From Nitrospirota bacterium (GTDB lineage Bacteria; Nitrospirota; Thermodesulfovibrionia; Thermodesulfovibrionales; JdFR-85): a stretch of DNA of 64,000 nt. A program made the translations under genes and the position numbers. This document shows, piece after piece, positions 33,038 through 48,404 of the stretch. The notes beneath the pieces are model-generated. The model was not told the DNA's origin, did no database searches, and was given only the letters and a program-made list of their open reading frames with translations. Every line of letters begins with the position of its first letter. Within the stretch, counting starts at the first letter, position 1. The DNA is taken from contig WFMM01000152.1 in the NCBI GenBank assembly GCA_015484595.1, forward strand, positions 3,842-67,841, given 5' to 3'.

Positions 33038-33114
33038 GCCCCCTTAGCTCAGTAGGATAGAGCACAGGATTCCTAATCCTGGTGTCAGAGGTTCGAATCC
33101 TCTAGGGGGCACCA
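33038..33114 (+). tRNA. tRNA-Arg (anticodon CCT), CCA encoded
   Basis: I folded the cloverleaf by hand. The acceptor stem is GCCCCCT/AGGGGGC and the D stem is GCTC/GAGC. The anticodon stem is CAGGA/TCCTG with loop TTCCTAA. The T arm is AGAGG-TTCGAAT-CCTCT, and the 3' end is ACCA. Confidence 0.9.
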
Positions 33115-33158: not shown

Positions 33159-33239
33159 TTAATTAACCCAATTAACCAAACACACTTTTTTTCTTTAAAA
33201 TCACAGGGAAAGTTTATTGATAACCATTGACTATTGAAT

Positions 33240-33290
33240 AATAAGTTTTTTTTATTTGACCAAATAGGCAAGACTGTATTATGGTTTAAT
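33240..33290 (+). promoter_or_regulatory. Candidate dsrA promoter (A/T UP-like tract, TTGACC, TGTATTAT)
   Basis: The sequence is AATAAG-T8-A-TTTGACC-N15-TATTAT, about 60 nt upstream of the dsrA ATG. It is nearly identical in layout to 44228-44278, upstream of dsrC. Confidence 0.5.
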
Positions 33291-33351
33291 GCTTTTGTTT
33301 TTAAAAGACTGAAAAAGATTAAAATGAAAATCTTACAACGAGGAGGAGATT

Positions 33352-34551
33352 ATGCCACAGAAACATCCAACGCCACTAATTGACGAGCTGGAAAAGGGCG
33401 CTTTTCCAAGTTTCGTCAAAGAGATCAAGAGGGCAGCTGAAAGCAGCAATGTTCAGGACAACAACTACGCTCAGGACCTTCTTGGTCAGTTGGAACTCTC
33501 CTACAAGGAGAAAAAGACACACTGGAAACACGGTGGTATCGTAGGTGTCAGGGGTTACGGTTCTGGTGTTATCGGCAGATACTCTGATATTCCTGACCAG
33601 TTCCCTGGTGTTGCACACTTTCACACAATCAGGGTTAACCAGCCAGGTGGATTCTTCTACACAACCGAGGCGCTTCGCGAGATCTGTGACATCTGGGACA
33701 AGTACGGAAGTGGTCTTACAAACATGCACGGCTCCACAGGTGACATAATCCTTCTTGGCACCAAGACAGACAACCTGGAGCCTGTCTTTGCAGAGCTATC
33801 CTCAAGGGGCTGGGACCTCGGTGGTTCAGGTTCAGCAGTGAGGACCCCAAGCTGTTGTGTTGGCCCAGCAAGGTGTGAGTGGGCTTGCTATGATACCCTT
33901 GAGCTTACCTACCAGATAACGCAGAGGTTCCAGGATGAACTTCACAGGCCAATGTTTCCATACAAGTTTAAATTCAAGATGGCAGGATGTGCAGTGGACT
34001 GCATTGCATCCATTGCCCGTGCTGACATGTCAATAATCGGTACCTGGAAGGGTAACATCCAGATTGACCAGGACGAGGTCAGAAATTATGCCAAAAATGG
34101 CATGGACATACAGGCAGAGATCGTTGACATGTGTCCAACTGGCTGCATGAGCTGGGATGGAAATGAGCTTAAGATCAACGATGAAGACTGTAACAGGTGC
34201 ATGCACTGTATTGCCAAGATGACCAAGGCCCTCAGACAGGGTGAGGAAAAGGGTGCAACCATCCTGCTTGGTTCAAAGGCACCAATCGTTACAGGTGCAC
34301 TCATGTCATGGGTAATCGTTCCATTTATCAAGCTTGAGCCACCCTATGAGGAGCTCTTTGACCTGGTCGAGAGGATCTGGGAGTTCTGGGATGAGCATGG
34401 TAAGAACCGTGAAAGGGTCGGTGAGCTTATAGAGAGGATGGGCTTTCCTGTATTCCTGAAGGAGACCGGAATCGAGCCGCATCCTGCAATGGTGAAAGAG
34501 CCAAGGCGTGACCCATTCTTCTTCTGGTCAGAAGAGGATGTAGAGAAGTAA
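33352..34551 (+). CDS. dsrA: Dissimilatory sulfite reductase alpha subunit
   Basis: 399 aa with siroheme/FeS Cys clusters ([14 protein letters not shown]) and a ferredoxin insert (CPTGC...CNRCMHC). dsrB follows with strong RBSs. Confidence 0.95.
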
Positions 34552-34582
34552 AAAATCAATTTTATAATATAAGGAGGTTATT

Positions 34583-35656
34583 ATGTCAGAATTACCACAG
34601 AGACAAACAGACATTGGACCACCGCATTATAGTAAGTTTTTACCACCTGTTATAAAGGAAAACTATGGTAAGTGGAGATATCACGAGATCTTAAGCGCTG
34701 GTGTAATGGTCCATGTTGCAGAAAGTGGTGCAAAGGTATGGACTGTCAGGGTTGCTTCACCAAGGCTTGTTTCAACTGACTTTATCAGGGACATCTGTGA
34801 GATCGCTGACAAGTACTGCGATGGTCATCTCAGGTTCACCACAAGGCACAATGTGGAGTTTCTCGTCTCTGATGAGAGCAAGGTTGACCCACTGGTCAAC
34901 GAGCTCAAGGAAAAGGGTTACATGATTGGTGGTATCGGTGACAGGATAAGTAATGTCGTCCATACCCAGGGCTGGGTGCACTGTCATTCAGCAGCAACCG
35001 ATGCTTCAGGTCTTGTTAAGGTGATGATGGATGAGCTCCATGAGTACTTCACAGAAAAGGAGCTCCCAGCAAAGGTAAGGCTTGCAGTTGCCTGCTGCGT
35101 TAACATGTGTGGTGCAGTTCACTGCTCAGACATAGCCCTTGTGGGTGTTCACAAAACACCACCAAGAATCGAGCACGATAAGGTCAAGAACCTCTGCGAG
35201 ATTCCATCAACCGTTGCATCCTGTCCTACCAGTGCTATCAGTCCTGATCCAGCAAAGAAGAGCGTCAAGATAAAGATTGAAAAGTGCATGTACTGTGGTA
35301 ACTGCTACTCTGTCTGCCCTGCAATGCCGATTTCTGATCCCAAAAACGACGGTGTTGCAATAGTGGTAGGTGGTAAGGTCAGTAACCTCAGGTCAAATCC
35401 AAAGTTTTCAAAGCTTGCTGTGCCGTGGCTTCCAAACAATCCACCAAGATGGCCTGAGGTGGTTGAGAATGTAAAGAAGATCCTCAACGCCTACATAGAG
35501 GGTGCAAAGAAGCATGAAAGGCTTGGTGAGTGGGTAGAGAGGATCGGATGGGAGAAGTTCTTTAAGGTAACAGGTCTTCCATTCCAGCTCCAGCACATCG
35601 ATGACTTCACCTTTGCCCGTGAGACCTGGAGAATGGCAGCCACCTTTAAGTGGTAA
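34583..35656 (+). CDS. dsrB: Dissimilatory sulfite reductase beta subunit
   Basis: 357 aa containing HTQGWVHCHSAATD, ACCVNMCGAVHC and CMYCGNCYSVCP. Confidence 0.95.
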   Translation: MSELPQRQTDIGPPHYSKFLPPVIKENYGKWRYHEILSAGVMVHVAESGAKVWTVRVASPRLVSTDFIRDICEIADKYCDGHLRFTTRHNVEFLVSDESKVDPLVNELKEKGYMIGGIGDRISNVVHTQGWVHCHSAATDASGLVKVMMDELHEYFTEKELPAKVRLAVACCVNMCGAVHCSDIALVGVHKTPPRIEHDKVKNLCEIPSTVASCPTSAISPDPAKKSVKIKIEKCMYCGNCYSVCPAMPISDPKNDGVAIVVGGKVSNLRSNPKFSKLAVPWLPNNPPRWPEVVENVKKILNAYIEGAKKHERLGEWVERIGWEKFFKVTGLPFQLQHIDDFTFARETWRMAATFKW

Positions 35657-35665
35657 AATAAAACA

Positions 35666-35694
35666 CAGAGGGGCAGCGTTGCTCTGCCCCTCTG
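35666..35694 (+). other. GC-rich intercistronic stem-loop between dsrB and dsrD, with no U-tract
   Basis: CAGAGGGGCAG-cgttgct-CTGCCCCTCTG gives an 11-bp perfect stem. ATTAAC follows it. Confidence 0.6.
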
Positions 35695-35716
35695 ATTAAC
35701 AGAGAGGAGTGAGGAG

Positions 35717-35935
35717 ATGGATAGAGAGGAACTGAAAAAGATCATTTATGAGTTGGTTGAAAAGTCTATGGGAAAGAAGCTTTACAAGCCTGGTGATCTT
35801 TTTAAGAAGCTTGAAAAGGAACACGGTGTTTCAAAGGCAGAGGCAAAGGCTGCACTTCGTGAGCTCATGGACGCAGGCACACTTATTTATTCATACAAGG
35901 GTGGAAGCTATGTAGAGATTCCACCAAAGGAATAA
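35717..35935 (+). CDS. dsrD: DsrD (small winged-helix activator of DsrAB)
   Basis: 72 aa in the typical position after dsrB. The sequence KLYKPGDLFKK...AKAALRELMDAGTLIYSYKGGSYVEIP fits DsrD. Confidence 0.9.
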   Translation: MDREELKKIIYELVEKSMGKKLYKPGDLFKKLEKEHGVSKAEAKAALRELMDAGTLIYSYKGGSYVEIPPKE

Positions 35936-35954
35936 GATCTAAACAAAAAACTCG

Positions 35955-37355
35955 GTGACTTACAGAATACCAAGGGTGGTTATAGCAGGGCTTCGTGGAG
36001 GCTCTGGTAAAACCACCCTTTCTGTTTCTTTATGCAGGGCCTTTACGCAAAAGGGCAGGAAGGTTACTGCCTTTAAAAAGGGGCCTGACTACATTGATGC
36101 AGGCTGGCTTTCAAAGGCAACGGGGAGGGATTGCTACAATCTTGATACCTACCTCATCCCAGAGGAGACGGTCTTTAAATCATTCCTTTACCACAGCAAA
36201 AACTCAGAGCTTTCTATAATCGAGGGTAACAGGGGGCTCTTTGATGGCCTTGACGCAGGCGGCACATTTAGCACGGCAGAACTCTCAAAGCGTCTTAAAG
36301 CACCGGTGGTAATAGTTGTGGATTGCACAAAGGTTACGAGAACCATTGCTGCCTTGTTAAAGGGGGTAAGAGAGTTCGACCCAGAGCTGATGCTTGAAGG
36401 TGTTATCCTTAACAACATAGCAGGCAAAAGACACGAGATGGTCATCAGGGAGGCTATCAAGGAGTATACGGACCTTAAGGTGATTGGTGTGGTAAAGAGG
36501 CTTAAGGATGTAGACCTCATTGAAAGGCACATGGGATTGAAGCCATACCAGGAGCATGATGATGTGGAGGGTATTATCGAAGGTCTAACAGAGCAGATTA
36601 CGCCTTCCATAGACCTTGAGATGCTTTTTAAGATTGCACATAGTGCCCCTGAGCTTATCCCTGATGAAGAGATCTCGCCTTACAGGGAAGGAGCATGTGA
36701 GGAACATCAGAGGGTGAGGATAGGTGTAATAAGAGACAGGGCCTTTCAGTTTTACTATCCCGAAAACCTGGAGGCACTTAAAAAACTCGGAGCTGAACTG
36801 ATTGAGATTGATGCCACCAGGATGGAAAACCTCCCCGAGATAGATGCACTTTACATTGGTGGTGGCTTCCCCGAAACCAATGCGATAGAGCTTTCCAGGA
36901 ACCGTAGCTTTATGGAAAGCCTGAAAGACAGGGCAGACTCTGGTCTGCCAGTTTATGCCGAGTGTGGTGGTTTGATGTATCTTGGCAGGGAGATACAATA
37001 CCTGGGGAAAAGCTACCCTATGACCGGAGTTCTACCACTTTCCTTTGAGCTATTTCAGAGACCGGTTGCCCATGGTTACACCGTTGTTGAGGTCACAGAG
37101 GAAAACCCCTTTTATCCGGTTGGCACGGTGATAAGGGGACACGAATTTCACTATTCAGCAGTAAAAGGTTATAATCAAGGTATAGAGTTCAGTTTCAGGA
37201 TGCTAAGGGGTAAGGGTATCAGGGATGGTCTTGATGGGGTTGTTTACAGAAATGTGCTTGCCACCTATACCCATGTGCATGCCCTTGGCGTGCCCCAATG
37301 GGCAGAGGGGCTGATAAATGCAGCAAGGAAGTACAGAGATGAAAGGAGCAGTTAA
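35955..37355 (+). CDS. dsrN: Cobyrinic acid a,c-diamide synthase-like amidase (DsrN, siroheme amidation), GTG start
   Basis: 466 aa with a P-loop (GLRGGSGKTT) and a C-terminal glutaminase Cys (YAECGGLMYL). It sits after dsrD. Confidence 0.8.
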   Translation: MTYRIPRVVIAGLRGGSGKTTLSVSLCRAFTQKGRKVTAFKKGPDYIDAGWLSKATGRDCYNLDTYLIPEETVFKSFLYHSKNSELSIIEGNRGLFDGLDAGGTFSTAELSKRLKAPVVIVVDCTKVTRTIAALLKGVREFDPELMLEGVILNNIAGKRHEMVIREAIKEYTDLKVIGVVKRLKDVDLIERHMGLKPYQEHDDVEGIIEGLTEQITPSIDLEMLFKIAHSAPELIPDEEISPYREGACEEHQRVRIGVIRDRAFQFYYPENLEALKKLGAELIEIDATRMENLPEIDALYIGGGFPETNAIELSRNRSFMESLKDRADSGLPVYAECGGLMYLGREIQYLGKSYPMTGVLPLSFELFQRPVAHGYTVVEVTEENPFYPVGTVIRGHEFHYSAVKGYNQGIEFSFRMLRGKGIRDGLDGVVYRNVLATYTHVHALGVPQWAEGLINAARKYRDERSS

Positions 37356-38022
37356 AAACAGGTTTCAGCTTAAAAAGCTCATACAGGATGCCCTCAAACA
37401 GAGAGACCTGGACCGTGTTGCAGAGTACGCCCTTGAAAGCCCCCGTACCGTGGGCATTCTTTTTAATCTTAGCTATGACAAGGACTCCATAATTACCTGG
37501 CGTGCAGTGGAGGCAATGGGAGAGGTAGCAAGGGTGCTTACCTATAGGTCTAAAGAGGAGGGCAGGGAGCTAATGAAGAGGCTTCTGTGGTCAATAACAG
37601 AGGAGTCCGGTGGGCTTGGATGGTCTTCCATTGAGATGATGGCAGAGGTGGTGGTGAGGTCACCCGAGGTCTTCAGCGACATACCGCTTCTTCTTCCTGA
37701 GTACTACGATGAGCCTGTGTTCAGGGACTCGGTGCTTTATGCACTGTGGCGGATTGGCTCGACACACCCTGAGCTGCTTTCTCCTAAAGATGTAAAGGAG
37801 GTGGTGCTTCAGGCACTTAGGTCAGAAAGCCCCTATCAGAGGGCCCTTGCACTTATGATAATTGAGGCAACAAGAGAGACTATAGACTACAAAGACATTG
37901 AGATAGACAGAGAGGTCTTCAACGATGATACACCTGTGAGGATTTACATTGATGGTCAGTTCGTCACGAGGCCATTAAAAGAACTCGCAGGTGCCCTTGA
38001 ACTTCCTGTCAGGAAACAATGA
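37339..38022 (+). CDS. Hypothetical alpha-helical (HEAT-like) protein
   Basis: About 227 aa from MKGAVKNRF. The start overlaps the dsrN 3' end and the stop overlaps the kinase start (ATGA). I recognised no catalytic motif. Confidence 0.45.
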   Translation: MKGAVKNRFQLKKLIQDALKQRDLDRVAEYALESPRTVGILFNLSYDKDSIITWRAVEAMGEVARVLTYRSKEEGRELMKRLLWSITEESGGLGWSSIEMMAEVVVRSPEVFSDIPLLLPEYYDEPVFRDSVLYALWRIGSTHPELLSPKDVKEVVLQALRSESPYQRALALMIIEATRETIDYKDIEIDREVFNDDTPVRIYIDGQFVTRPLKELAGALELPVRKQ

Positions 38023-39461
38023 GACTTACCATATTCAGCCGTCTCAGTTTTGGCTACCTCGTCCTTTTCCTGTTCGTCTTTTCAATAGGTGCCTTTTCAA
38101 TCTACCAGATAGAAAGGGTTAAGCTTAAGACCGCAAGGGTCATTACCAGCGACAGTCAGCTTATAGAGATTAACAAAAAACTGATTGACACCATCCTGAG
38201 TGCTGAAAAAAACGAAGAGAAGTATTTACTCATCGGCGATGATGCCTTTCTGAGACAGTACAGAATGGATACAGAGGAGTTCGAAGACAATCTTCAAAGA
38301 ATAAATGCCCTCACTGAAAACAGGGAGGTAAAGGTAATCATCGATGAAATAAAGGCTGCCTTCAGGAAGTACAGGGAAGTCTTTGACGAGGAGTTAGGGC
38401 TTATAAAGAGCAGGCTAAAGTACAACAAAAACATATACAAGTCAATGAAGGAAGAGCAGATCTCTGCGGTTCTCAGGGGTATTAATCGGCTCAAGGCAGT
38501 AAGCCGTCAGCACATCATAAGGACCCTCAAGGCAATCGATAGAGATGAGGAGTCTGTGGAGAGGTTGATCCTCATTGTTACGGCGTGGTTCCTGATAATA
38601 GGTGTGGTGCTTGCTGGTGTGATTACCAGAGGCATAGTAAAACCCCTTTCCATGATAAAGAGAAAGACCAGGGAGATTGCAGAGGGAGACCTTGAGCCAA
38701 ACCTTTCACTTAATGGGCCACCTGAGATAACAGAGGTTGCCCAGTCTATAAACTCCATGTGCGAAAAACTAAAGGAGATTGATAGACTGAAGGCAGACTT
38801 CTTCTCCGTTATGTCCCATGAACTCAGGACCCCTCTTACGGCAATAAAGGAAGGGGTGAGTCTGCTTAAGGAGGGTATCTGTGGCCCAACGAATGAAAAA
38901 CAGCAAAAGATACTGAACATACTGTCTGATGAGAGCAAAAGACTGGTAACGCTGGTTGACAACCTGCTTGACCTGTCTAAGATGGAGGCAGGAATGTTAG
39001 AATATAACTTCGAGGAAGTAAACATCAGTACACTGGTTAATCAGGTTGTTAAAGAGCTGTCTCCAATTGCGGAGGGTAAAGGGGTAAGCATCAGTGTAAG
39101 GGGGGATGTGCCTTCAAAGGTAAGGGCTGACAGCGAAAGGCTCCTTCAGGTGCTCAGGAATCTTATTGGAAATGCCCTTAAGTTCAGTCCCGAGGGCTCT
39201 GAGGTGTTGGTAGGGATTGATGCTGAATCATCAGGTGTGATGGTTTCCGTATCTGACAGGGGCCCTGGAATCCCCGAGGAGTACAGAGAGAAGATATTTG
39301 ACAGGTTTCAGCAGGCAAGGCTTCCAAACTCAAGCCTTTACAAGGGAACGGGGCTGGGTCTTTCAATAGTTAAAAACATAATAAATGGACATGGAGGAAG
39401 GGTATGGGTGGAAAGCAACGAAGGTGGTGGAAGCACCTTCAGGTTCTGGTTGCCTCTTTAG
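38019..39461 (+). CDS. Sensor histidine kinase (two TM, helical periplasmic domain, HAMP, HisKA, HATPase)
   Basis: The H-box is SVMSHELRTPLTAI, the N-box is NLIGNALKF, and the G-boxes are DRGPGIP...GTGLGLSIV. Confidence 0.85.
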   Translation: MRLTIFSRLSFGYLVLFLFVFSIGAFSIYQIERVKLKTARVITSDSQLIEINKKLIDTILSAEKNEEKYLLIGDDAFLRQYRMDTEEFEDNLQRINALTENREVKVIIDEIKAAFRKYREVFDEELGLIKSRLKYNKNIYKSMKEEQISAVLRGINRLKAVSRQHIIRTLKAIDRDEESVERLILIVTAWFLIIGVVLAGVITRGIVKPLSMIKRKTREIAEGDLEPNLSLNGPPEITEVAQSINSMCEKLKEIDRLKADFFSVMSHELRTPLTAIKEGVSLLKEGICGPTNEKQQKILNILSDESKRLVTLVDNLLDLSKMEAGMLEYNFEEVNISTLVNQVVKELSPIAEGKGVSISVRGDVPSKVRADSERLLQVLRNLIGNALKFSPEGSEVLVGIDAESSGVMVSVSDRGPGIPEEYREKIFDRFQQARLPNSSLYKGTGLGLSIVKNIINGHGGRVWVESNEGGGSTFRFWLPL

Positions 39462-39877
39462 TGGCACTTGTGTTTATACAGGGCTGTCTTCCCACTGTGG
39501 AGGTAAAAAAAAGGGCTGGCATGATGGCAAAAGGGGAAGAAAAAAACAGTAAGCCGGTGCTTAAGTGGGAAGAAAGGATGAAAAGCGGAGAGTATGATGA
39601 GTTTATGAAAGAGGCACAGGGTGTATACCAGAGTGCAGAGGATCCTCAACTGAAACAGAAGGCCCTTTATTACATGGCGCTAACACAGATACACCCTGAG
39701 AATCCATCAAGGGACCTGAAAAGGGCTGAGGGCTATTTCAGAAAGCTTATAGTCCTGTATCCTGATGGCATTTATGCTCAGGAATCAAGGGTCTGGCTCG
39801 GGCTTATCTCTATTATTGAGAAATCCAAAAAGATAGACATTGAGATAGAAAAGAAAAAGCAGGAGTTTTCCAGATAA
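39404..39877 (+). CDS. Lipoprotein with TPR-like helical repeat
   Basis: The N-terminus MGGKQRRWWKHLQVLVASLVALVFIQGC has a basic n-region, a hydrophobic core and a lipobox. It overlaps the kinase 3' end by 58 nt. A GTG at 39461 is an alternative start. Confidence 0.5.
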   Translation: MGGKQRRWWKHLQVLVASLVALVFIQGCLPTVEVKKRAGMMAKGEEKNSKPVLKWEERMKSGEYDEFMKEAQGVYQSAEDPQLKQKALYYMALTQIHPENPSRDLKRAEGYFRKLIVLYPDGIYAQESRVWLGLISIIEKSKKIDIEIEKKKQEFSR

Positions 39878-39878
39878 C

Positions 39879-41234
39879 ATGGCCAGTGCTTCGGTTTTGA
39901 TAGTGGACGATGACCTTAATCTTCTTGAGATCATGAAGATGAGGCTTGAGGCCTCAGGGTTTGATGTCACCACTGCCCGTGATGAAAACGAGGCAAGGGC
40001 CTTTATTAAGGAGAAGGACTTTGACCTTGCAGTGGTTGACCTTCAGCTTGTGCAGACCGACGGTATTACCCTTATGAGAGAAATACACGAGATTTATCCA
40101 CTTATGCCCGTGATTATCCTTACTGCCCACGGAAGCATTGAGAGTGCAGTTGAGGCCATGCGCAGGGGTGCCTTTAACTACCTTACAAAGCCCTTTGATG
40201 CAAGGGAGTTGATCGTCCAGATTGAAAGGGCACTTCGTAGCAGTGAGCTTGAGAAAGAGGTTCAACGGCTAAGGGACTTTCTCAAAGAGGAGTATGACTT
40301 TAAAAATATTATAGCCAGAAGCTCAGCAATGAAGAAGGTGCTTGAGCAGGTTTCAAGGATTGCCCAGGTTGACTCATCAGTTTATATTCATGGTGAAAGT
40401 GGAACCGGAAAGGAGCTCATTGCAAGGGCCATTCATCTTGCAAGTCCAAGGAGGGAGAGACCCTTTGTGGCAATAAACTGTGCTGCCCTTCCTGAGGGTG
40501 TGCTTGAGAGTGAGCTGTTCGGTCACGAAAAGGGTGCCTTTACAGGGGCGGTAAGGACGCTGAAGGGGATATTTCAGCGAGCAGAGGGAGGCACCGTTTT
40601 TTTAGACGAGATAGCAGACATGCCCCTTTCAATACAGGGGAGGTTCCTCAGGGTGCTTCAGGAAAGGCAGTTCTATCCACTGGGAAGTGACAGACCCGTC
40701 AGAGTAGATGTAAGGGTCATCGTGGCAACCAACAAGGACCTTGCAGAGGAGGTGAGGGCTGGCAGGTTCAGAGAGGACCTCTTTTTCAGGATACATGTGA
40801 TTCCTCTGAAGCTGCCCCCTCTGAGGGAGAGAAAGGAGGATATCCCCCTTCTGGTAAACCACTTTATAAAGAAATTCAGTGAAAAGATGAAAAAGAATGT
40901 CAACGGCATCAGCTCACGGGCACTTAAGAAGCTTATGCTTTACGACTGGCCTGGAAATGTAAGAGAGCTTGAAAATACCATAGAGTACGCCGTGGCAATG
41001 GCAAGGTCACAGACCATAGAGGATGACCTCATAACCGTAACCCCTGCCTCCACGATAAGCTCCCTGAGACCCTTCGATGAGGCAAAGAGTGAGTTTGAAA
41101 GGGAATATCTTATTAACCTTCTCCGACACACAGGGGGCAATGTCTCAAGGGCAGCAGAGATAGCAGGACGCTACAGGGCTGACCTCTATAACCTCATGAA
41201 AAAACACGGTATAAACCCAAAGGACTATAAATAG
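39879..41234 (+). CDS. Sigma-54-dependent response regulator (REC, AAA+, HTH; NtrC family)
   Basis: The receiver Asp sits in the context DLAVVDLQL. The Walker A is GESGTGKE, the GAFTGA loop is present, and the C-terminus is a Fis-type HTH. Confidence 0.92.
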   Translation: MASASVLIVDDDLNLLEIMKMRLEASGFDVTTARDENEARAFIKEKDFDLAVVDLQLVQTDGITLMREIHEIYPLMPVIILTAHGSIESAVEAMRRGAFNYLTKPFDARELIVQIERALRSSELEKEVQRLRDFLKEEYDFKNIIARSSAMKKVLEQVSRIAQVDSSVYIHGESGTGKELIARAIHLASPRRERPFVAINCAALPEGVLESELFGHEKGAFTGAVRTLKGIFQRAEGGTVFLDEIADMPLSIQGRFLRVLQERQFYPLGSDRPVRVDVRVIVATNKDLAEEVRAGRFREDLFFRIHVIPLKLPPLRERKEDIPLLVNHFIKKFSEKMKKNVNGISSRALKKLMLYDWPGNVRELENTIEYAVAMARSQTIEDDLITVTPASTISSLRPFDEAKSEFEREYLINLLRHTGGNVSRAAEIAGRYRADLYNLMKKHGINPKDYK

Positions 41235-41238
41235 CTTT

Positions 41239-41256
41239 TGTATGGAAATTCATACA
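41239..41256. promoter_or_regulatory. Candidate activator-binding palindrome (UAS)
   Basis: TGTATG-N6-CATACA is followed by a half-site-like TATACA. It lies about 90-100 bp upstream of the -24 element. Confidence 0.35.
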
Positions 41257-41341
41257 GTTTATACACTTTTTTCACGCCATTTACACCCCTCAATTAATTA
41301 AAATTCTTTTAAAAACAATAACTTACCCATCCACCAAATTC

Positions 41342-41356
41342 TGGCATCATTATTGC
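41342..41356 (+). promoter_or_regulatory. Sigma-54 (-24/-12) promoter
   Basis: TGGCAT-cattA-TTGC has GG-N10-GC spacing that matches TGGCAC-N5-TTGC. It lies downstream of the sigma-54 activator gene and upstream of the multiheme cytochrome. Confidence 0.6.
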
Positions 41357-41433
41357 GTAATAAATATTCAGTGTATACAAGATGTAAAGATGGCAGATTT
41401 TTAAAGATATAGAGAATTTGCAATCTGAATAAC

Positions 41434-41485
41434 TGGATTTTGGACTTTGTTTAGGATTTAGGAATTAGAATTTAGAGTTTAATCT
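41434..41485. repeat. 7-bp tandem array (TTAGGAT family) in the cytochrome leader
   Basis: The array reads tggattt|tggactt|tgt + ttaggat|ttaggaa|ttagaat|ttagagt|ttaatct. Confidence 0.7.
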
Positions 41486-41528
41486 TAAAAAGCTGGAGGT
41501 GATAAGCAGACAAAAAGGGAGGAAAGAG

Positions 41529-41708
41529 ATGGAGATACTGAAGCTTATAACTGCACTCCTTCTGATTGCAGGGGTGCTTCAGGGTATATCCTATCTGACA
41601 TGGAGTATTAAAGAGCTGCATCGGGATAAATTAAAGAAGGAGGTTAAGGTTTATGAAAAAGGCTCGAATAATGCTTATAGTTGCGGTAATACTCATGATT
41701 GTTTTTAG
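41529..41708 (+). CDS. Possible small single-TM protein (about 59 aa)
   Basis: GGGAGG sits 6 nt upstream of the ATG. MEILKLITALLLIAGVLQGISYL is a TM helix. The 3' end overlaps the cytochrome start by 56 nt, so coding status is uncertain. Confidence 0.3.
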   Translation: MEILKLITALLLIAGVLQGISYLTWSIKELHRDKLKKEVKVYEKGSNNAYSCGNTHDCF

Positions 41709-43746
41709 CCTATCGCAGGCATGGGCAGACAGAGGTAAAGAAAAACATCAAAGGCACCACAATGACAGAGAGCTAAAGATTCAAAAGGCAAAGCACAAAA
41801 GACATAAGGAAAGCTTTGTTATTAAGGATACACAAGATGATGACCGTGATGGAGATGAGCCCCAGACTGGTGGTGGCATAAATCAGCCCATTACAGGCCC
41901 AGGGTTTCAGGTGCTTGCCTTTAACGACCTTGGAATGCACTGTTATGACAAAGACTATTCAGTCTTTTCCATCCTGCCCCCCTTTAATGTCATCCACGCA
42001 CAGGTGGTGAAAAAGGGTGCTGAGCCAGAGGTGCTTGACGACAGCCAGGTTGAGGTCTACTACTCAGCGGTGGAGGACACTAAGGGCTCAATCAACACAA
42101 CCAGTGCTGGAAAGACGAATTTCTGGGATTATGTATACGAGCTTTTTGGTGTTTCACCTTCACCTGACGAGGGCCTTACCGGAAACAGGATGCCTGGTGA
42201 CAGAAAGACCTGGAGGATTTTTGCCGAGTACAATCCTGACAAAAAGTGGTTTACTGCCTCGGGAATACCGATTACTGCAACAGATGACAGCGGGGCAAAG
42301 AACCACTACCCCATGATGAGGATAACCGCAGTTGATAAGTCCACAGGACAGGTGCTTGCCTACACTGACATAGTGCTACCTGTATCAGATGAGATGCACT
42401 GCAGTGACTGTCACTCAACAGGTTGTATGGCAGCAAACCAGAGCACTGCAAAAAGGTACTCAATAGGTGCATGGAGTGATGGAGGAGGTGACCCGGAGAT
42501 AGAGTACAGGGAAAACATCCTGATACTTCATGATGCAAAACACGGAACAAACCTGCTTGGTTCAACGCCTGTGCTCTGTGCATCCTGTCACTACTCTCCT
42601 GCCCTTGACCTTGCTGGTAAAGGACCACAGGGGCCGCAGGTGGGGCTTCCACTTCTTTCTGAGGCAATTCACGGAAGGCATGGAAGGACAATTAACGATG
42701 AGCTTCCGTCAAACCCTGAGGATGCAATTATCCCGGATACCGCTGGAACAGGTGCCTGCTACTACTGTCACCCTGGAAGTTCAACTAAGTGTCTAAGGGG
42801 TGTTATGGCAGAGGCTGGTCTTGATTGTCAGAACTGCCACGGTGGTATGTTACAGGTGGCTGGTGAGTTTTCACAGAGGATGCCCTGGGTTGATGAGCCA
42901 AAGTGTCAGTCCTGTCATACAGGGGATGCAGTAAAAAACAATGGTGTAATAAGGGAGACAGTGGCTTACGACAGCTCTGACCCTGCTGCCCTGCCACGAC
43001 AAAACCCATGGAGCAGGTTTGCTGAAAATAACGATACCCTTTACAGAGACAGCCTTGGTCATGGTGGGCTTGCCTGTGAGGCCTGTCACGGAAGCACTCA
43101 TGCCATATGGCCAAGCAGGGAGCCTAACGACAATGTTTCAGCCACTGAGATACAGGGACATCAGGGTGTGATTATAGAATGCAGTGCCTGTCACGGAAAT
43201 AACCTTGCACCTACAACCGATGGTCCCCACGGAATGCACAATGTCAATGACCCTGTGTGGAACAAGGAACACGGAGATTTTTATGAGCAAAATGCCAGAA
43301 CCTGTAAAAGTTGCCACGGCCAGAACCTCCAAGGCACCGAGCTTTCCGAGACCCATGACGACAGGGTGCTTTTTGACAAAAGGGGTAACAGGATAAAACT
43401 TTCAAAGGGAACACAGGTGAGTTGCTCAATCTGTCACGAAAACCCTGAAACCGGAACCATGAATGCACCACCAACAGTGCCTGTGCAATCTCCCACACAG
43501 CCATCACAACCCACACAGCCTTCTAATCCTTCACAGCCAATGCAGCCTACAACGCCCACACAGCCTGACGGTGTAGCCCTTTATACTCAGAACTGCTCAG
43601 GCTGTCACGGACCTCTTGCACGCTCGTCTAAACGAGGCGCCACTGCCTCACAGATACAGAATGCCATTAACAAAAACTTCGGTGGTATGGGCAGGTTTAA
43701 GAGCCTGACCACCGCTGAGATAAATGCCATAGCCTCCGTCCTATAA
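41653..43746 (+). CDS. Ten-heme c-type cytochrome: a nine-heme body, a P/T/Q linker, and a C-terminal class-I monoheme domain
   Basis: The RBS GGAGG precedes the signal peptide ..LSQAWA/D. The ten CXXCH motifs are CSDCH, CASCH, CYYCH, CQNCH, CQSCH, CEACH, CSACH, CKSCH, CSICH and CSGCH. Confidence 0.85.
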   Translation: MKKARIMLIVAVILMIVFSLSQAWADRGKEKHQRHHNDRELKIQKAKHKRHKESFVIKDTQDDDRDGDEPQTGGGINQPITGPGFQVLAFNDLGMHCYDKDYSVFSILPPFNVIHAQVVKKGAEPEVLDDSQVEVYYSAVEDTKGSINTTSAGKTNFWDYVYELFGVSPSPDEGLTGNRMPGDRKTWRIFAEYNPDKKWFTASGIPITATDDSGAKNHYPMMRITAVDKSTGQVLAYTDIVLPVSDEMHCSDCHSTGCMAANQSTAKRYSIGAWSDGGGDPEIEYRENILILHDAKHGTNLLGSTPVLCASCHYSPALDLAGKGPQGPQVGLPLLSEAIHGRHGRTINDELPSNPEDAIIPDTAGTGACYYCHPGSSTKCLRGVMAEAGLDCQNCHGGMLQVAGEFSQRMPWVDEPKCQSCHTGDAVKNNGVIRETVAYDSSDPAALPRQNPWSRFAENNDTLYRDSLGHGGLACEACHGSTHAIWPSREPNDNVSATEIQGHQGVIIECSACHGNNLAPTTDGPHGMHNVNDPVWNKEHGDFYEQNARTCKSCHGQNLQGTELSETHDDRVLFDKRGNRIKLSKGTQVSCSICHENPETGTMNAPPTVPVQSPTQPSQPTQPSNPSQPMQPTTPTQPDGVALYTQNCSGCHGPLARSSKRGATASQIQNAINKNFGGMGRFKSLTTAEINAIASVL

Positions 43747-43766
43747 ACCCCCAGCCCTCCTTCAAA

Positions 43767-43799
43767 GGGAGAGACTGTTGTCTCTCCCTCTCTTTTTTA
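43767..43799 (+). terminator. Rho-independent terminator after the cytochrome gene
   Basis: GGGAGAGAC-tgtt-GTCTCTCCC gives a 9-bp stem, followed by TCTCTTTTTTATTT. Confidence 0.7.
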
Positions 43800-43800
43800 T

Positions 43801-43830
43801 TTGACTTTATCGGTTATGTCTTATTATAAT
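43801..43830 (+). promoter_or_regulatory. Near-consensus sigma-70-type promoter
   Basis: The pattern is TTGACT-N18-TATAAT. The -10 element ends 14 nt before the ATG at 43845, and no SD lies in between. Confidence 0.5.
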
Positions 43831-43844
43831 TTTCTATTCATCAA

Positions 43845-44225
43845 ATGAAGTACAGAGAAGACAAGAGCACACTATATGAGCCACGGTGTCCCTTTTGCAG
43901 GGATTTTTTTTCAAGACCAGTAGATATAGATACCGATTTCGGGGCCTTTTCAGGAGGGGTCTGTAGCTGCGGCGCTGTGTATGCCTTTGACCCAACAGGT
44001 AGAAACCTGGGGGAGACCTTTATGGATGCCCTCTCATACGCCTGTGGTGGTGATTACGAAAAGGCGGTGAGTCTTGAGGCAGGAGTGGATTACGAAGAAT
44101 ACATATTACAGTACAATTACAGAACCCATAGCATCTCTCCAGGAAGGGCCTACAGTTTATTCGATAGAAGAGCAAGGGGAATGCTTTACTTTGTAAAATT
44201 AAAAAATATTAAGGCCACTGATTGA
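43845..44225 (+). CDS. Cys-rich hypothetical protein (putative zinc ribbon)
   Basis: 126 aa. CPFC-X24-CSC suggests four Cys ligands near the N-terminus. I recognised no family. The gene lies between the cytochrome terminator and the dsrC promoter. Confidence 0.5.
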   Translation: MKYREDKSTLYEPRCPFCRDFFSRPVDIDTDFGAFSGGVCSCGAVYAFDPTGRNLGETFMDALSYACGGDYEKAVSLEAGVDYEEYILQYNYRTHSISPGRAYSLFDRRARGMLYFVKLKNIKATD

Positions 44226-44227
44226 AA

Positions 44228-44278
44228 AATAAGTTTTTTTAATTTGACCCTAAAATAAAAACTGTATTATTGTTTATA
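44228..44278 (+). promoter_or_regulatory. Candidate dsrC promoter, paralogous in layout to the dsrA promoter
   Basis: The pattern is AATAAG-T7-AA-TTTGACC-N15-TATTAT-TGTTTA. It shares the outer blocks AATAAGTTTTTTT, ATTTGACC and ACTGTATTAT.GTTTA with 33240-33290. Confidence 0.5.
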
Positions 44279-44345
44279 GCCTGTTTAAAAGAGATATGTC
44301 AGTTAAGGGAGTTTTCCCATAAAAAACAAATCAAGGAGGTTTAAG

Positions 44346-44681
44346 ATGCCAACATTAGAATTCCAGGGCAAACAGATCGAGGTCGATGAGGAAGGTTATC
44401 TCCAGAACCTTGATGACTGGACTCCTGAGCTTGCTGCCTACATGGCTCAGCAGGATGGTCAGGAACTGACAGACGAGCACTGGGAGATCATCAACTTTCT
44501 GAGGGATTATTATCAGAAGTATCAGATTGCTCCAATGATCAAGATTCTGGTTAAGGAGATCAAAAAGACCATGGGACCTGATAAGGGTAACACCAAGTAT
44601 CTCTATCAGCTCTTTCCAGATGGTCCAGCAAAGCAGGCCTGTAGGTATGCAGGACTGCCAAAACCAACAGGTTGCGTATAA
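44346..44681 (+). CDS. dsrC: DsrC
   Basis: 111 aa. The C-terminal arm CRYAGLPKPTGCV carries the two conserved Cys residues, and the N-terminus has the TusE-like pattern. Confidence 0.95.
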   Translation: MPTLEFQGKQIEVDEEGYLQNLDDWTPELAAYMAQQDGQELTDEHWEIINFLRDYYQKYQIAPMIKILVKEIKKTMGPDKGNTKYLYQLFPDGPAKQACRYAGLPKPTGCV

Positions 44682-44695
44682 TCCTTTCTGATAAG

Positions 44696-44730
44696 GGCAC
44701 CCCGACTTTTAAGGGGTGCCTGATTTTTAT
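44696..44730 (+). terminator. Rho-independent terminator after dsrC
   Basis: GGCACCCC-gacttttaa-GGGGTGCC is followed by TGATTTTTAT. Confidence 0.7.
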
Positions 44731-44748
44731 CAGGACTAATTAAAAAAG

Positions 44749-45267
44749 ATGGGGATAAGGGAACAACTAAAAGAAAACAGGGAAAAGATACTGAGCAGAT
44801 GGTTTGAAAGTATTTTAAAGACCTATCCAGCAGAGACAGTCAGGTTTCTTAAAAAAACAAAAGACCAGTTTCACAATCCTGTAGGACAAACGATAAAAGA
44901 AGGTATAGAGGGTATATTATTTGAGCTAACCGGGGAAGGGGAGATAGAAAAGATAACCCCCTTTCTTGACAGAATTATCAGAATCAGGGCAATTCAGGAC
45001 TTCACTCCATCAGAAGCAGTTGCTTTCATCTTTCAGCTAAAGGGTATTATCAGAGAGGAAATTGATTTGGACAGAATCGGCTCTGAGGAGCTTCTGGGGC
45101 TGGATAAAAAAATAGACGAGCTGGCATTGAAGACCTTTGATATCTACATGGGATGTAGAGAAAAGCTCTATGAACTAAAGGCCACGGAGCTAAGGAACTG
45201 GACATACAAACTGCTTGAGAGGGCTAATCTTTTAAAAGAGTTTGAAGAGAATTTCAAATCAAAGTAG
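44749..45267 (+). CDS. RsbRD-N-terminal-like helical protein in the DsrT position, upstream of dsrMKJOP
   Basis: 172 aa. The N-terminus, ENREKILSRWFESILKTYPAETVRFLKKTKDQFHNPVG, looks like RsbRD_N. The DsrT assignment comes from position and from my recollection of the family, so it is tentative. Confidence 0.5.
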   Translation: MGIREQLKENREKILSRWFESILKTYPAETVRFLKKTKDQFHNPVGQTIKEGIEGILFELTGEGEIEKITPFLDRIIRIRAIQDFTPSEAVAFIFQLKGIIREEIDLDRIGSEELLGLDKKIDELALKTFDIYMGCREKLYELKATELRNWTYKLLERANLLKEFEENFKSK

Positions 45268-45290
45268 TGTTTCTTAAAAGGAGGTTATAA

Positions 45291-46334
45291 ATGGGAGCAT
45301 TGTTATCCTTTGGAGCTGTTGTGGTTCTTTTGCTTATCCCTGCCATCGGTGCTGGTGCCCTCAAACTCCACTCTCTGTTTGGTGTGGTAATTCCCTACCT
45401 GGCTGTTATAGTTTTTCTTGTAGGACTGATAAACAGGGTAATCGGCTGGGGAAAGGTGCCTGTGCCTTTCAAGATTCCGACCACCTGCGGACAGCAGAAA
45501 TCACTCCCCTGGATTAAGCACAGCAGGCTTGAATCTCCAGCAACCGGTGGTGAGGTGTTCTTGAGGATGGTTCTTGAGGTGTTGTTTTTCAGGTCACTGT
45601 TCAGGAATCTGAGAACCGAAAAGGCTCCTGGTGACCGCGTGGTTTACGGCTCTTCAAAGTGGTTGTGGGTAGCAGGGCTGGCCTTTCACTATTCCTTCCT
45701 TATTGTGTTTCTGAGGCATCTGAGGTTCTTTAAACAACCCACACCAAAGATAATAGGGATTATTGAAAGCTTTGATGGCTTTCTGCAGATAGGCTCACCA
45801 CACCTCTTAGTAACAGGGCTTGTGCTTTTTGGAGCGGTTTTTTATCTCTTTTTAAGAAGAATCTTTGTCCCCCAGGTTCGTTACATCTCGCTTCCTGCTG
45901 ACTATTTCCCGCTGTTTCTGATAATGGCAATAGCTGGCACAGGTATGTTGATGAGGTATTTTCTGAGGGTTGATATTATAAAGGTCAAAGAGCTTACCAT
46001 GGGGCTTGCCACCTTTCATCCAAAGGTGCCTGAAGGTATTAGTGTTATCTTTTACATACACCTCTTTCTTGTTTCAACCCTTTTTGCATATTTCCCCTTC
46101 AGCAAGATGGTTCACCTTGGGGGTGTTTTCCTGAGTCCAACGAGAAACTTAGCTAACAACACCCGCATGGTCCATCATCCAAACCCCTGGAATTATCCTG
46201 TGAAGGTTCATACCTATGAGGAGTACGAAGAGGAGTTCAGAGACAAGATGATAGCCGCGGGTATACCTGTTGAAAAACAGCCTGAACCAAGGGAAGAGGA
46301 ACAACCCACAGAAGAAAGCGAAGGAAAGGAGTGA
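45291..46334 (+). CDS. dsrM: DsrM (NarI-like membrane dihaem b subunit)
   Basis: 347 aa, multi-TM with conserved His in the helices. It is the first gene of the MKJOP order. Confidence 0.9.
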   Translation: MGALLSFGAVVVLLLIPAIGAGALKLHSLFGVVIPYLAVIVFLVGLINRVIGWGKVPVPFKIPTTCGQQKSLPWIKHSRLESPATGGEVFLRMVLEVLFFRSLFRNLRTEKAPGDRVVYGSSKWLWVAGLAFHYSFLIVFLRHLRFFKQPTPKIIGIIESFDGFLQIGSPHLLVTGLVLFGAVFYLFLRRIFVPQVRYISLPADYFPLFLIMAIAGTGMLMRYFLRVDIIKVKELTMGLATFHPKVPEGISVIFYIHLFLVSTLFAYFPFSKMVHLGGVFLSPTRNLANNTRMVHHPNPWNYPVKVHTYEEYEEEFRDKMIAAGIPVEKQPEPREEEQPTEESEGKE

Positions 46335-46338
46335 TACC

Positions 46339-47970
46339 ATGTCAAAACAGCCAAAGCCACCAAAGCCCGACGAATTAGCAAAGTCAATAGAATACAAAAC
46401 TCCTGAAACTCAATGGATGGAAACCCCTGTAAAGTTTAAACCTGGTATGTGGTGCTATGGCTCAAGGCCAAAGTACCTTGAAGAAGTGGGCATGCCTAAC
46501 CCAAGGGAGTGGTCACCCGCAGATGACGATTGGAAGCTACCTGAGAACTGGAAAGAAATCGTGCTCGACGGGATGAAAGACCGTCTTGGCAAGTACAGGA
46601 CCTTCAAGCTCTTTATGGACATATGCGTTCGTTGTGGGGCCTGTGCTGACAAGTGTCACTTTTACATAGGATCGGGTGACCCAAAGAACATGCCTGTATT
46701 AAGGGCAGAGCTAATGCGGTCTGTTTACAGAAAGTACTTCACCACTGGCGGAAAACTATTTGGAAAGACCGCAGGTGCCCGTGAGCTTACAGAGGATGTA
46801 ATAAAGGAATGGTGGTATTACTACTATCAGTGCACCGAGTGCCGTCGTTGTTCTGTTTTTTGTCCCTATGGTATTGACACGGCTGAGATAACAATAATGG
46901 GCAGGGAGCTTACCAATCTCCTGGGTCTTCAGACCGACTGGATAGGCGGTCCAGTGGCAAACTGCTATCACAAGGGTAACCACCTCGGGCTTGAGCCCCA
47001 CACGATACAGAGCAACATAGAGATGATGTGTGATGATATAGAGGAGATAACAGGTATAAGGATTGAACCAACTTTTAATCGTAAGGGAGCTGAGATACTC
47101 TTTGTAACACCCTCTGGTGACCTTTTTGGTCTTCCTGGAATTTATACCTGTATGGGATACCTGATGCTCTTTCACGAGCTTGGTCTTGATTACACATGGA
47201 GCACCTATGCCTCTGAGGGTGGTAACTTTGGCTTCTTTACATCAAACGAGATGGCCAAGAGGCTTCATTACAAGATATACGCAGAGGCAAAGCGTCTTGG
47301 CGTTAAGTGGATACTGGGTGGTGAGTGTGGTCACATGTGGAGGCTCGTTCATCAGTATCTGAACACCTGGTGGGGACCACCGGACTTTCTTGAGGTTCCA
47401 AAATCTCCAATAACTGGTACTGTCTTTGAAAATGCCAAAAGCACAAAGATGGTCCATGTTACCGAGTTTACGGCTGACCTCATCAAGCACGGCAAGATAA
47501 AACTTGACCCAAGTCGTAATGATCATCTGAAGATAACATTCCACGACTCCTGTAACACATCCAGAGGAATGGGTATCTTTGAAGAACCCCGTTACATCAT
47601 AAAGCATGTGGCAAGGCATTTTTACGAGATGCCTGAGAATACCATCAGGGAGAAGACCTTCTGCTGTGGAAGTGGTTCAGGATTGAATGCTGGTGAGAAC
47701 ATGGAGCTCAGGATGCGTGGTGGATTCCCGAGGGCCAACGCTGTCAGGTATGTCCACGAAAAATACGGCGTAAACATGCTTGCCAATATATGTGCAATTG
47801 ACAGGGCAGCACTTCCGACCCTGATGCAGTACTGGGTACCCGAGGTTGATGTCTGCGGTGTTCACGAACTGGTTGGTAATGCACTGGTGATGACCGGAGA
47901 GAAGAAGAGAACCATGGATCTCAGGTTAGAGCCGCTTCCTGGAATGGAAGATGAGGAAGAGGAGGAATAA
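46339..47970 (+). CDS. dsrK: DsrK (HdrD-like FeS/CCG-domain subunit)
   Basis: The start is taken at MSKQPKPP, with AAGGAAAGGAG upstream. It has the ferredoxin motifs CVRCGACADKC and CTECRRCSVFCP, and the CCG motif FCCGSGSG. Confidence 0.92.
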   Translation: MSKQPKPPKPDELAKSIEYKTPETQWMETPVKFKPGMWCYGSRPKYLEEVGMPNPREWSPADDDWKLPENWKEIVLDGMKDRLGKYRTFKLFMDICVRCGACADKCHFYIGSGDPKNMPVLRAELMRSVYRKYFTTGGKLFGKTAGARELTEDVIKEWWYYYYQCTECRRCSVFCPYGIDTAEITIMGRELTNLLGLQTDWIGGPVANCYHKGNHLGLEPHTIQSNIEMMCDDIEEITGIRIEPTFNRKGAEILFVTPSGDLFGLPGIYTCMGYLMLFHELGLDYTWSTYASEGGNFGFFTSNEMAKRLHYKIYAEAKRLGVKWILGGECGHMWRLVHQYLNTWWGPPDFLEVPKSPITGTVFENAKSTKMVHVTEFTADLIKHGKIKLDPSRNDHLKITFHDSCNTSRGMGIFEEPRYIIKHVARHFYEMPENTIREKTFCCGSGSGLNAGENMELRMRGGFPRANAVRYVHEKYGVNMLANICAIDRAALPTLMQYWVPEVDVCGVHELVGNALVMTGEKKRTMDLRLEPLPGMEDEEEEE

Positions 47971-47996
47971 TCTTATGAACAGGAAGGAGGTCAACC

Positions 47997-48404
47997 ATGT
48001 ATGACGGTGGAAAGATAATAGCAGGGATAATAATCTTCCTGGCCTTTGCCTTGTTCCCCTTTTATTCTAACATCGGCAAGGCCGATATAAAGCCTCCAAA
48101 GCCGAGCCTCGACACTCCTGTTATCAAGGCACTGAAGGTTAAGAAATGTGTTGAGCCAGAACAGTATATGAGGGAATCACACATGCAATTACTCATAAAA
48201 TGGAGAGATTCAGCTTTGAGGCATGCTAAGAGGGTATATGTAAATTCAAATGGTGAAGAGTATGTGATCAGCCTTCAGAAGACCTGTCTGAGGTGTCACT
48301 CAAACCGTTCGGAGTTCTGTGATAGGTGCCATAAGTATGCAGATGTTGACCCCTATTGCTGGGACTGTCACTTTTCCAAAGCCAAACAGGAGGAGCAGAG
48401 ATGA
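47997..48404 (+). CDS. dsrJ: DsrJ (membrane-anchored trihaem cytochrome c)
   Basis: 135 aa with an N-terminal TM and three CXXCH motifs (CLRCH, CDRCH, CWDCH). Confidence 0.9.
   Translation: MYDGGKIIAGIIIFLAFALFPFYSNIGKADIKPPKPSLDTPVIKALKVKKCVEPEQYMRESHMQLLIKWRDSALRHAKRVYVNSNGEEYVISLQKTCLRCHSNRSEFCDRCHKYADVDPYCWDCHFSKAKQEEQR

Follow-up and report, generated by a model that had tools for sequence, protein, structure and literature searches.

A predicted promoter-operator shared by dsrA and dsrC across sulfite-reducing Nitrospirota

The control of core respiratory genes in sulfate and sulfite reducers is poorly known outside Desulfovibrio, and even there DsrAB lies outside the predicted regulons (PMC545781). 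A 64,000-nucleotide (nt) stretch of a Nitrospirota bacterium genome (contig WFMM01000152.1; hereafter the window) carries dsrA (33352), identified by the NIR_SIR domains of its product, and dsrC (44346; PF04358, E = 1.6e-47), and it raises the question of why two distant genes are preceded by look-alike DNA. An original prediction, made from the letters of the window, had taken the likeness for a dedicated promoter type, and the two strings on which it rested are present at 33240 and 44228. From AATAAG onward, the two sites are identical at 40 of 50 positions without a gap; the likeness begins 7 nt before AATAAG, at ATTGAA (33233/44221), and ends with GC at 33291/44279. The window has 1,485 pairs of 160-nt upstream regions; this pair reached 41/50 and the best of the 1,484 others 31/50. 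The 22-mer common to both sites, AATAAGTTTTTTTNATTTGACC, has exactly two copies in the window (0.00 expected from 100 shuffles), and no further copies of the block were found there. The distance from TTTGACC to ACTGTATTAT is 11 nt at both sites (TTGACC-N15-TATTAT), so the predicted identity of spacing holds, with its wording as '16 nt and 15 nt' unclear. GGAGG sites do lie ahead of both genes (33342 and 44335). The leaders are similar in this genome, with 69 nt (dsrA) and 75 nt (dsrC) from the end of TATTAT to the ATG, but not across the lineage, where dsrA and dsrC have median TTGAC-to-start distances of 98 and 140 nt. The first ~15 nt of the two predicted leaders are also alike (33295-33307, TGTTTTTAAAAGA; 44281-44292, TGTTTAAAAGA) in this genome only, and relatives differ.

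Conservation of the block was examined in related genomes. The source bacterium is an uncultured one. Identical DsrA occurs in groundwater metagenome assemblies, with graded relatives from 95% identity downward. Among relatives obtained by exact-protein look-up, the block lies upstream of dsrA at 95%, 90%, 88% and 78% DsrA identity, and in the 78% relative, a closed 2.29-Mb genome, it precedes dsrC too. Eighty metagenome loci were picked by DsrA similarity alone, 73 of which had enough upstream DNA, and a strict core was defined as the T-run plus ATTTGAC. This core precedes dsrA in 54 of the 73 loci, and near-variants, with for example an interrupted T-run or TTGATT, occur in 13 more; the block is missing in just six, all of them GC-rich. 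Similarly, the core precedes 14 of the 15 dsrC genes found by protein similarity in those loci, and the one gene without it is a GC-rich outlier (45% DsrC identity). Conservation of orthologous sites extends down to ~54-60% DsrA identity, and across genomes the sites of a given gene type are closely alike. In a profile of 97 dsrA and 61 dsrC sites, as in the set of 157 sites used below, the conserved block of ~75 bp spans only ~-37 to ~+36, counted from the first T of TTGAC as 0; because nothing is conserved on either side of it, the leaders are unconserved.

Seventy-one distinct sites anchored on TTGAC were used to score single columns. The site sets had been selected on TTGAC, the conservation of which is therefore unscorable, and they include related sequences, so that the counts overstate the number of independent observations. 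Unselected columns are nevertheless close to invariant upstream (A-33, 70/71; A-23, 70/71; T-22, 68/71; A-15, 71/71; T-14, 70/71; A-12, 70/71) as well as downstream (T+19, 69/71; T+21, T+24, A+25 and T+29, 71/71 each). Across the 18 genomes with a complete pair, a dsrA site is more like the dsrC site of its own genome than like that of another (27.6 vs 24.3 of 62 variable columns; permutation p ~5e-5). This excess likeness sits in the upstream block (p ~4e-4) and in the start region (p ~0.008); the spacer has none (p = 0.14) and thereby serves as a composition control. The window pair agrees at 51 of 75 positions over the whole block, towards the top of the 39-54/75 seen within genomes. Judged by its sequence, the block is a lineage-wide promoter-operator of the sulfite-reducing Nitrospirota.

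The same block was sought before other genes. A scan of a genome collection with the invariant columns returned at least 129 matches in at least 120 stretches. Among the matches listed, 50 lie before dsrA and 49 before dsrC (99 in total), and about five more have a dsr-type upstream block but stand at contig ends or beside untyped genes; no dsr-type site precedes any other gene among these ~104 dsr-type matches. About 25 further matches listed fall in unrelated phyla (Clostridia, Streptococcus, Bacteroidota, the candidate phyla radiation and others), lack the T-run and the dyads described below, and look like ordinary TTGACA-17/18-TATAAT promoters or chance occurrences. The carriers among the matches listed are Thermodesulfovibrio, Thermodesulfovibrionales/-ia, Dissulfurispiraceae, Ca. 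Sulfobium, Ca. Magnetominusculus and entries named 'Nitrospirae bacterium'. The genomes sampled have two copies each, always before dsrA and dsrC. Moreover, 32 other promoter candidates of the lineage keep TTGAC-17/18-TAnnnT but have no T-run, no A-TT before TTGAC, no TRTWT box and no dyads. The prediction of a promoter type dedicated to dsrA and dsrC thus stands, being kept across relatives and confined to these genes among the matches listed. Its expected further members did not appear: none of the ~104 dsr-type matches listed precedes sat, aprBA or qmo, the promoters of which are absent from the DNA compared, and a search for ATP sulfurylase signature peptides found no sat in the locus DNA gathered. 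Full-text literature searches found no prior description of the motif, which by its sequence would be a lineage-wide promoter-operator dedicated to dsrAB and dsrC with no earlier description found.

The core of the block has a different geometry from the one first proposed. TTGACC is supported as the -35 hexamer, with five of six matches to TTGACA at 33256 and 44244, and its sixth base is C in 50 and G in 20 of the 71 sites in the core-selected sets. TATTAT, which had been taken as the -10 element at N15, occupies columns +21 to +26, and its last base varies freely (A29/C13/G13/T16; 0.09 bits over the 71 sites), with TATTAA, TATTAG, TATTAC or TTTTAA at this position in relatives. The -10 is instead TAnnnT (T+24, A+25 and T+29), 18 nt after TTGACN, whose T-12, A-11 and T-7 are present in 71/71 sites, as in a sigma-70/sigmaA promoter with a spacer of 16-18 nt. 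An independent consensus scanner chose the same hexamers at an 18-nt spacer at both sites. This spacing is also the lineage's commonest: in these Nitrospirota loci, 611 non-dsr upstream regions gave, for TTGACN-spacer-TAnnnT, 24 hits at 18 nt (27-fold over the coding background), 13 at 17 nt (16-fold) and two at 15 nt, which is not enriched. The argument that a short spacer calls for an alternative sigma or a helper factor falls, because the -10 is TAnnnT at 18 nt, the lineage norm. Nor is there an extended -10, since TG is missing at -15/-14 in either frame, with TA at both window sites; of the 71 sites, 48 have A and 23 have T at column -14 and none has G, and in the frame first proposed the TG abuts the hexamer without a spacer base. 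In its place a T-R-T-W-T box lies at -17 to -13 (T+19, R+20 in 70/71, T+21), which is not a trait of the lineage's non-dsr promoters. A purine occupies +35 in 65 of the 71 sites, 6 nt past the -10, and on this basis the transcription starts are predicted at G33291 and G44279. As far as its bases tell, the core is what a sigmaA promoter of this lineage normally looks like, and the analysis corrects the promoter geometry for the phylum to TAnnnT with an 18-nt spacer.

Upstream of this core, the AATAAG and T-run that had been described as UP-like are better seen as the right-hand copy of two tandem dyads. A position weight matrix of columns -38 to -4, run alone over ~1.6 Mb of Nitrospirota loci, found no separate operator copies there; its best 'other' matches were the reverse strands of the same sites, which exposed the dyad symmetry. 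The best dyad centre is -18.5 in the combined, dsrA-only and dsrC-only sets. Two in-register 15-base-pair (bp) dyads, ATNA-N7-TNAT, occupy -36 to -22 and -15 to -1, and the direct-repeat score peaks at an offset of 21 (10.3, vs 3.8 at 20 and 4.1 at 22). The copies agree in columns 1-5 and 12-15, and even the A:G split at position 5 matches between them (86:59 and 86:54). The left dyad was never used for selection; it is perfect in 95 of the 157 sites and has at most one mismatch in 137, with columns -36 to -33 and -25 to -22 conserved. The right, promoter-proximal dyad, of which the T-run forms the central N7, retains ATWA in 70-71 of 71 sites in a set not selected for ATWA. Relative to the predicted start, the dyad centres lie at ~-64 and ~-43, 21 bp or two helical turns apart. 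At the dsrC site, the stop codon TGA (44223-44225) of a 126-amino-acid (aa) open reading frame (ORF) stands directly 3' of the left dyad, between the two boxes. The dyad region folds no better than shuffled sequence (z = -0.3 and -0.7), structure scores across the tested elements range from -0.3 to -0.8 without hairpin potential, and no pairwise covariation was found beyond the expectation from column frequencies. The lack of both hairpin and covariation is the pattern expected of a protein site. An FNR-like near-palindrome, TTGATAACCATTGA (33217-33230; two mismatches of 10), overlaps the dsrA left dyad and is absent at dsrC.

The presence of the block before dsrA and dsrC only, almost unchanged, suggests that one factor controls both operons. 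Both sites would be the same housekeeping-sigma (sigma-70/sigmaA-type) promoter, made of the -35 TTGACC, an 18-bp spacer, the T-R-T-W-T box, the -10 TAnnnT and a start G ~6 nt on, with an operator, two 15-bp dyads in tandem, joined directly to the upstream side of the -35. A multimeric DNA-binding regulator would occupy both dyads on one helix face, contact RNA polymerase at the -35 and switch the dsrAB(D...) and dsrC(-dsrT-dsrMKJOP) operons together; a LysR-type tetramer would fit this geometry best. We judge the arguments for and against a tandem-dyad operator on a sigmaA promoter, with a putative multimeric regulator coupling dsrAB and dsrC, to be evenly balanced. More tentatively, and with somewhat more doubt than belief, we propose a two-operon regulon of sulfite-reducing Nitrospirota under one putative multimeric, possibly LysR-type, regulator at -64/-43. 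The data show the sequence anatomy, its conservation across sulfite-reducing Nitrospirota, its confinement to dsrA and dsrC in the genomes sampled and the 18-nt spacer as the lineage norm; we infer the start sites, that something besides RNA polymerase sits on the dyads, which protein this would be and in which direction it would regulate. A factor-dependent reading, which the original prediction had allowed for, is still likely, by way of the tandem dyads and not of a short spacer.

Several observations weigh against this proposal. The covariation within genomes is modest, and base composition could account for part of it. AT-rich DNA gives pseudo-symmetry, the leading dyad centre scores 11.3 vs 8.4 for the runner-up, and the right box overlaps columns fixed by the selection patterns. 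The start is predicted, so that -64 and -43 may shift by 1-2 bp. The scan pattern was derived from the dsr sites, and diverged members or operator-only sites would escape it; likewise, the sat, apr and qmo promoters lie outside the DNA compared. Neither the window ORFs scanned nor the families recurring near dsr in 171 loci include a LysR-type or other plausible regulator, or any protein with HTH_1 or LysR_substrate domains, a distant gene being possible. The recurrent neighbours are DsrB, DsrD, DsrN, DsrT, DsrC, DsrM, DsrK and DsrO, a DVU0298-family protein, the Cys-rich protein p126 and housekeeping genes. The window's histidine kinase and sigma-54 response-regulator pair was rejected as the regulator; it is part of an insertion specific to this species, and its targets would be sigma-54 promoters. 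At 17774-18433 (minus strand) lies the gene of a DtxR-type iron-dependent repressor that has a FeoA domain and comes from a family whose operators are unlike the dsr dyads. This repressor and the sigma-54 response regulator are the only DNA-binding regulators among the ~47 larger window ORFs scanned, a set that excludes a few short or overlapping ones.

The most serious alternative keeps the sigmaA promoter but dispenses with a dedicated regulator, reading the AT-rich block as a strict UP-element-like or curved-DNA platform for the alpha subunits of RNA polymerase, whose T-tract and phased A/T elements to ~-73 would make dsrAB and dsrC constitutively very strong. We consider it quite possible, if on the whole improbable. 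The block does fall between -40 and -73, has only A or T where it is conserved and places a T7-8 tract immediately ahead of the -35; the central bases of the -10 are weak, as is usual where a promoter depends on upstream contacts; and neither the window ORFs scanned nor the recurrent neighbours include a linked regulator gene. DsrAB and DsrC are, besides, expected among the most abundant proteins, which would suit constitutive strength. Yet recognition by the alpha C-terminal domain is degenerate and would not be expected to keep isolated bases 97-100% invariant, and the E. coli UP consensus NNAAAWWTWTTTTNNNAAANNN is matched at only 11 of 14 positions and ~4 bp out of register. None of the ~104 dsr-type matches listed precedes an rRNA, ribosomal-protein or other gene, and the 32 other promoter candidates, few of them known strong promoters, lack the block. 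The arrangement of the invariant bases as two in-register dyads 21 bp apart, the poor UP match and the confinement to two operons weaken this alternative.

The tandem-dyad proposal has two weaker competitors. One is the geometry first suggested, TTGACC-N15-TATTAT with an extended -10 and an alternative sigma or an obligatory spacer-compensating factor, to which we give very little credence. TATTAT matches TATAAT at five of six positions at both sites and has a TG just upstream, but its sixth base is unconserved (0.09 bits), the invariant hexamer is TAnnnT at 18 nt, the lineage shows no enrichment of 15-nt spacers, and no sigma-54 or other alternative consensus fits. The other, hardly credible to us, is that the sites stem from a recent duplication, gene conversion or a dispersed repeat of no regulatory meaning, or form a terminator tail or hairpin. 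The position of the window pair near the upper end of the within-genome range would agree with duplication, and the slightly greater likeness of within-genome pairs could include some conversion. Against this stand the conservation of orthologous sites to ~54-60% DsrA identity and the fact that each genome has only two copies, before dsrA and dsrC every time. A terminator or hairpin is opposed by the lack of a stem before either T-run, of folding (z = -0.3, -0.7) and of covariation. An intrinsic terminator was rejected at both T-runs, neither of which has a GC-rich hairpin or terminator-like site, and an Rfam search returned tRNA only, with no known RNA family at the sites.

Were the tandem-dyad proposal true, the block would give the phylum its first defined point of transcriptional control over dissimilatory sulfite reduction, a cis-code left nearly unchanged while DsrA diverged to ~55-60% identity. 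It would couple the enzyme DsrAB to its co-substrate protein DsrC, and it offers defined bases and a 75-bp bait for the factor. For a promoter, this degree of conservation is unusual, with over 20 positions that do not vary across Thermodesulfovibrio, Dissulfurispiraceae, Ca. Sulfobium and magnetotactic Nitrospirota. The motif could mark expressed, bona fide dsr loci in Nitrospirota metagenome bins, and the idea of a two-operon regulon is directly testable in cultured Thermodesulfovibrio. The coordinates of the features are collected in Table 1.

Table 1. Positions in the window of the predicted dsrA and dsrC promoter-operators and of the genes that follow them (SD, Shine-Dalgarno sequence)
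Feature	Position	Strand	Remarks
Whole conserved dsrA promoter-operator block	33219-33292	+	-37 to +36 vs first T of TTGAC (33256)
dsrA left dyad box, ATAA-N7-CTAT	33220-33234	+	One mismatch to consensus, C for T at -25
dsrA right dyad box, ATAA-GTTTTTT-TTAT	33241-33255	+	T-run 33246-33253 inside; abuts -35
dsrA -35 hexamer, TTGACC	33256-33261	+	5/6 vs TTGACA; also consensus scan
dsrA TGTAT box (T-R-T-W-T, -17 to -13)	33275-33279	+	Column conservation in 71 sites
dsrA -10 hexamer, TATGGT (TAnnnT)	33280-33285	+	18-nt spacer; 71/71 columns; consensus scan
Predicted dsrA transcription start, G	33291	+	61-nt leader; SD GGAGG 33342-33346; ATG 33352
Whole conserved dsrC promoter-operator block	44207-44280	+	-37 to +36 vs first T of TTGAC (44244)
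dsrC left dyad box, ATTA-N7-TGAT	44208-44222	+	Inside 3' end of 126-aa ORF
dsrC right dyad box, ATAA-GTTTTTT-TAAT	44229-44243	+	T-run 44234-44240
dsrC -35 hexamer, TTGACC	44244-44249	+	5/6 vs TTGACA; consensus scan
dsrC TGTAT box plus -10 hexamer, TATTGT	44263-44267; 44268-44273	+	18-nt spacer
Predicted dsrC transcription start, G	44279	+	67-nt leader; SD GGAGG 44335-44339; ATG 44346
First-promoter genes: dsrA, dsrB, 72-aa DsrD-like, dsrN-like amidase, DVU0298-family	33352-38022	+	Predicted operon extent
Second-promoter genes: dsrC, RsbRD_N (DsrT-like), dsrMKJOP	44346-50369	+	Predicted operon extent

The gene order behind the first promoter is the same in relatives L004, L005 and L007. A tRNA-Arg(CCT) gene (33038-33114) lies 126 nt upstream of the dsrA site and is also found upstream of dsrA in L004 and L005. 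The DsrD-like 72-aa winged-helix protein of the first operon has a weak GntR-type match. The DVU0298-family protein after dsrN (37318-38022; NCBIfam NF045662, E = 8e-41) gives a weak HEAT-repeat signal, and its gene recurs in 34 related loci. Between dsrN/DVU0298 and p126/dsrC, a 5.7-kb block (38019-43789) found only in this species encodes a CHASE3/HAMP histidine kinase, a 157-aa ORF, the sigma-54-dependent response regulator and a 697-aa multihaem cytochrome c, followed by a terminator (43766-43789). L004 and L007 (95% and 78% DsrA identity) lack it, and there a 126/128-aa ORF directly follows the DVU0298-family gene. The window's p126 (43845-44225) encodes a 126-aa Cys-rich protein (CPFC...CSCG) without a Pfam or NCBIfam match, and its homologues adjoin dsrC in 39 loci. 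In the window, p126 has its own promoter, TTGACT-18-TATAAT (43801-43830). The partial look-alike of the dsr sites at 43793-43830, in which a terminator tail is followed by ATTTGACT-N18-TATAAT ahead of the 126-aa ORF, was rejected as a further copy and is an ordinary promoter because it lacks the dyads. The consensus scan also reported a weak promoter-like site internal to the second operon (44655-44682). In one clade (L014, L015, L071, L086, L117, L144 and L202), a second conserved promoter-like sequence on the opposite strand, TTGAC-TTGACCC...N18...TAAAAT/TACAAT, stands just upstream of the dsrA block and ~40 nt before a divergent ORF.

Among known systems, the proposed operator most resembles the sites of LysR-type transcriptional regulators (LTTRs). 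The binding site of OxyR, one such regulator, is ATAG-N7-CTAT repeated twice. The usual LTTR layout has a T-N11-A dyad near -65 and a second site at -35, with 50-60 bp covered (PMC8407307). The interrupted dyad ATNA-N7-TNAT contains T-N11-A, with the left copy centred at ~-64 from the predicted start, although T-N11-A is very permissive, too much so to establish LTTR membership. The second in-register dyad, at -15 to -1, abuts the -35 on the same helical face, and the two dyads together take up ~36-40 bp on one face with centres 21 bp apart. In contrast to typical LTTR systems, no LTTR gene is divergent from or near the dsr targets among the window ORFs and recurrent neighbours, and the dsr half-sites are pure A/T. 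The LysR-type resemblance is thus a lead, not membership.

The dsr promoters also resemble UP-element promoters of the E. coli rrnB P1 type in having an A/T tract immediately upstream of a near-consensus -35. Bacillus sigmaA promoters, in work reportedly by Helmann from 1995, are said to carry a '-16 region' TRTG and phased upstream A/T tracts; the dsr sites likewise have T-R-T two to four bases upstream of the -10 but no G at -14, so that they match neither TGn nor TRTG. As with such strong promoters, the dsr promoter is likely very strong, for abundant proteins. Unlike them, its conserved bases form discrete dyads reaching to -72 and are confined to two operons.

In Desulfovibrio, operators of HcpR (CRP/FNR-type) and Rex lie upstream of sat and apsAB, and DsrAB is explicitly outside the HcpR regulon (PMC545781). 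The Nitrospirota block is comparable as a comparative-genomics signature that ties sulfate-respiration operons into a regulon, and it differs in phylum, target genes and motif. Rex, CRP/HcpR, HcpR-2, FNR, Fur 7-1-7 and sigma-54 sites were all rejected as poor fits. TTGTGA-N6-TCACAA, TTGTGAA-N4-TTCACAA and ATTTGACC-NN-GGTCAAAT have 4-7 mismatches at the dsr sites; only the ATTTGACC half-site coincides, which is the -35, and the columns of its would-be second half-site are unconserved.

Dsr proteins themselves have been considered as regulators. DsrC was proposed to bind a dsr promoter in Allochromatium vinosum (Grimm et al. 2010, as cited in PMC8794893). DsrD has long been a suspect for this role; in A. 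fulgidus it activates DsrAB allosterically and bound DNA of the dsrAB promoter no differently from control DNA (PMC8794893). The idea of feedback by a Dsr protein has a parallel at this locus, where the first operon encodes a DsrD-like winged-helix protein.

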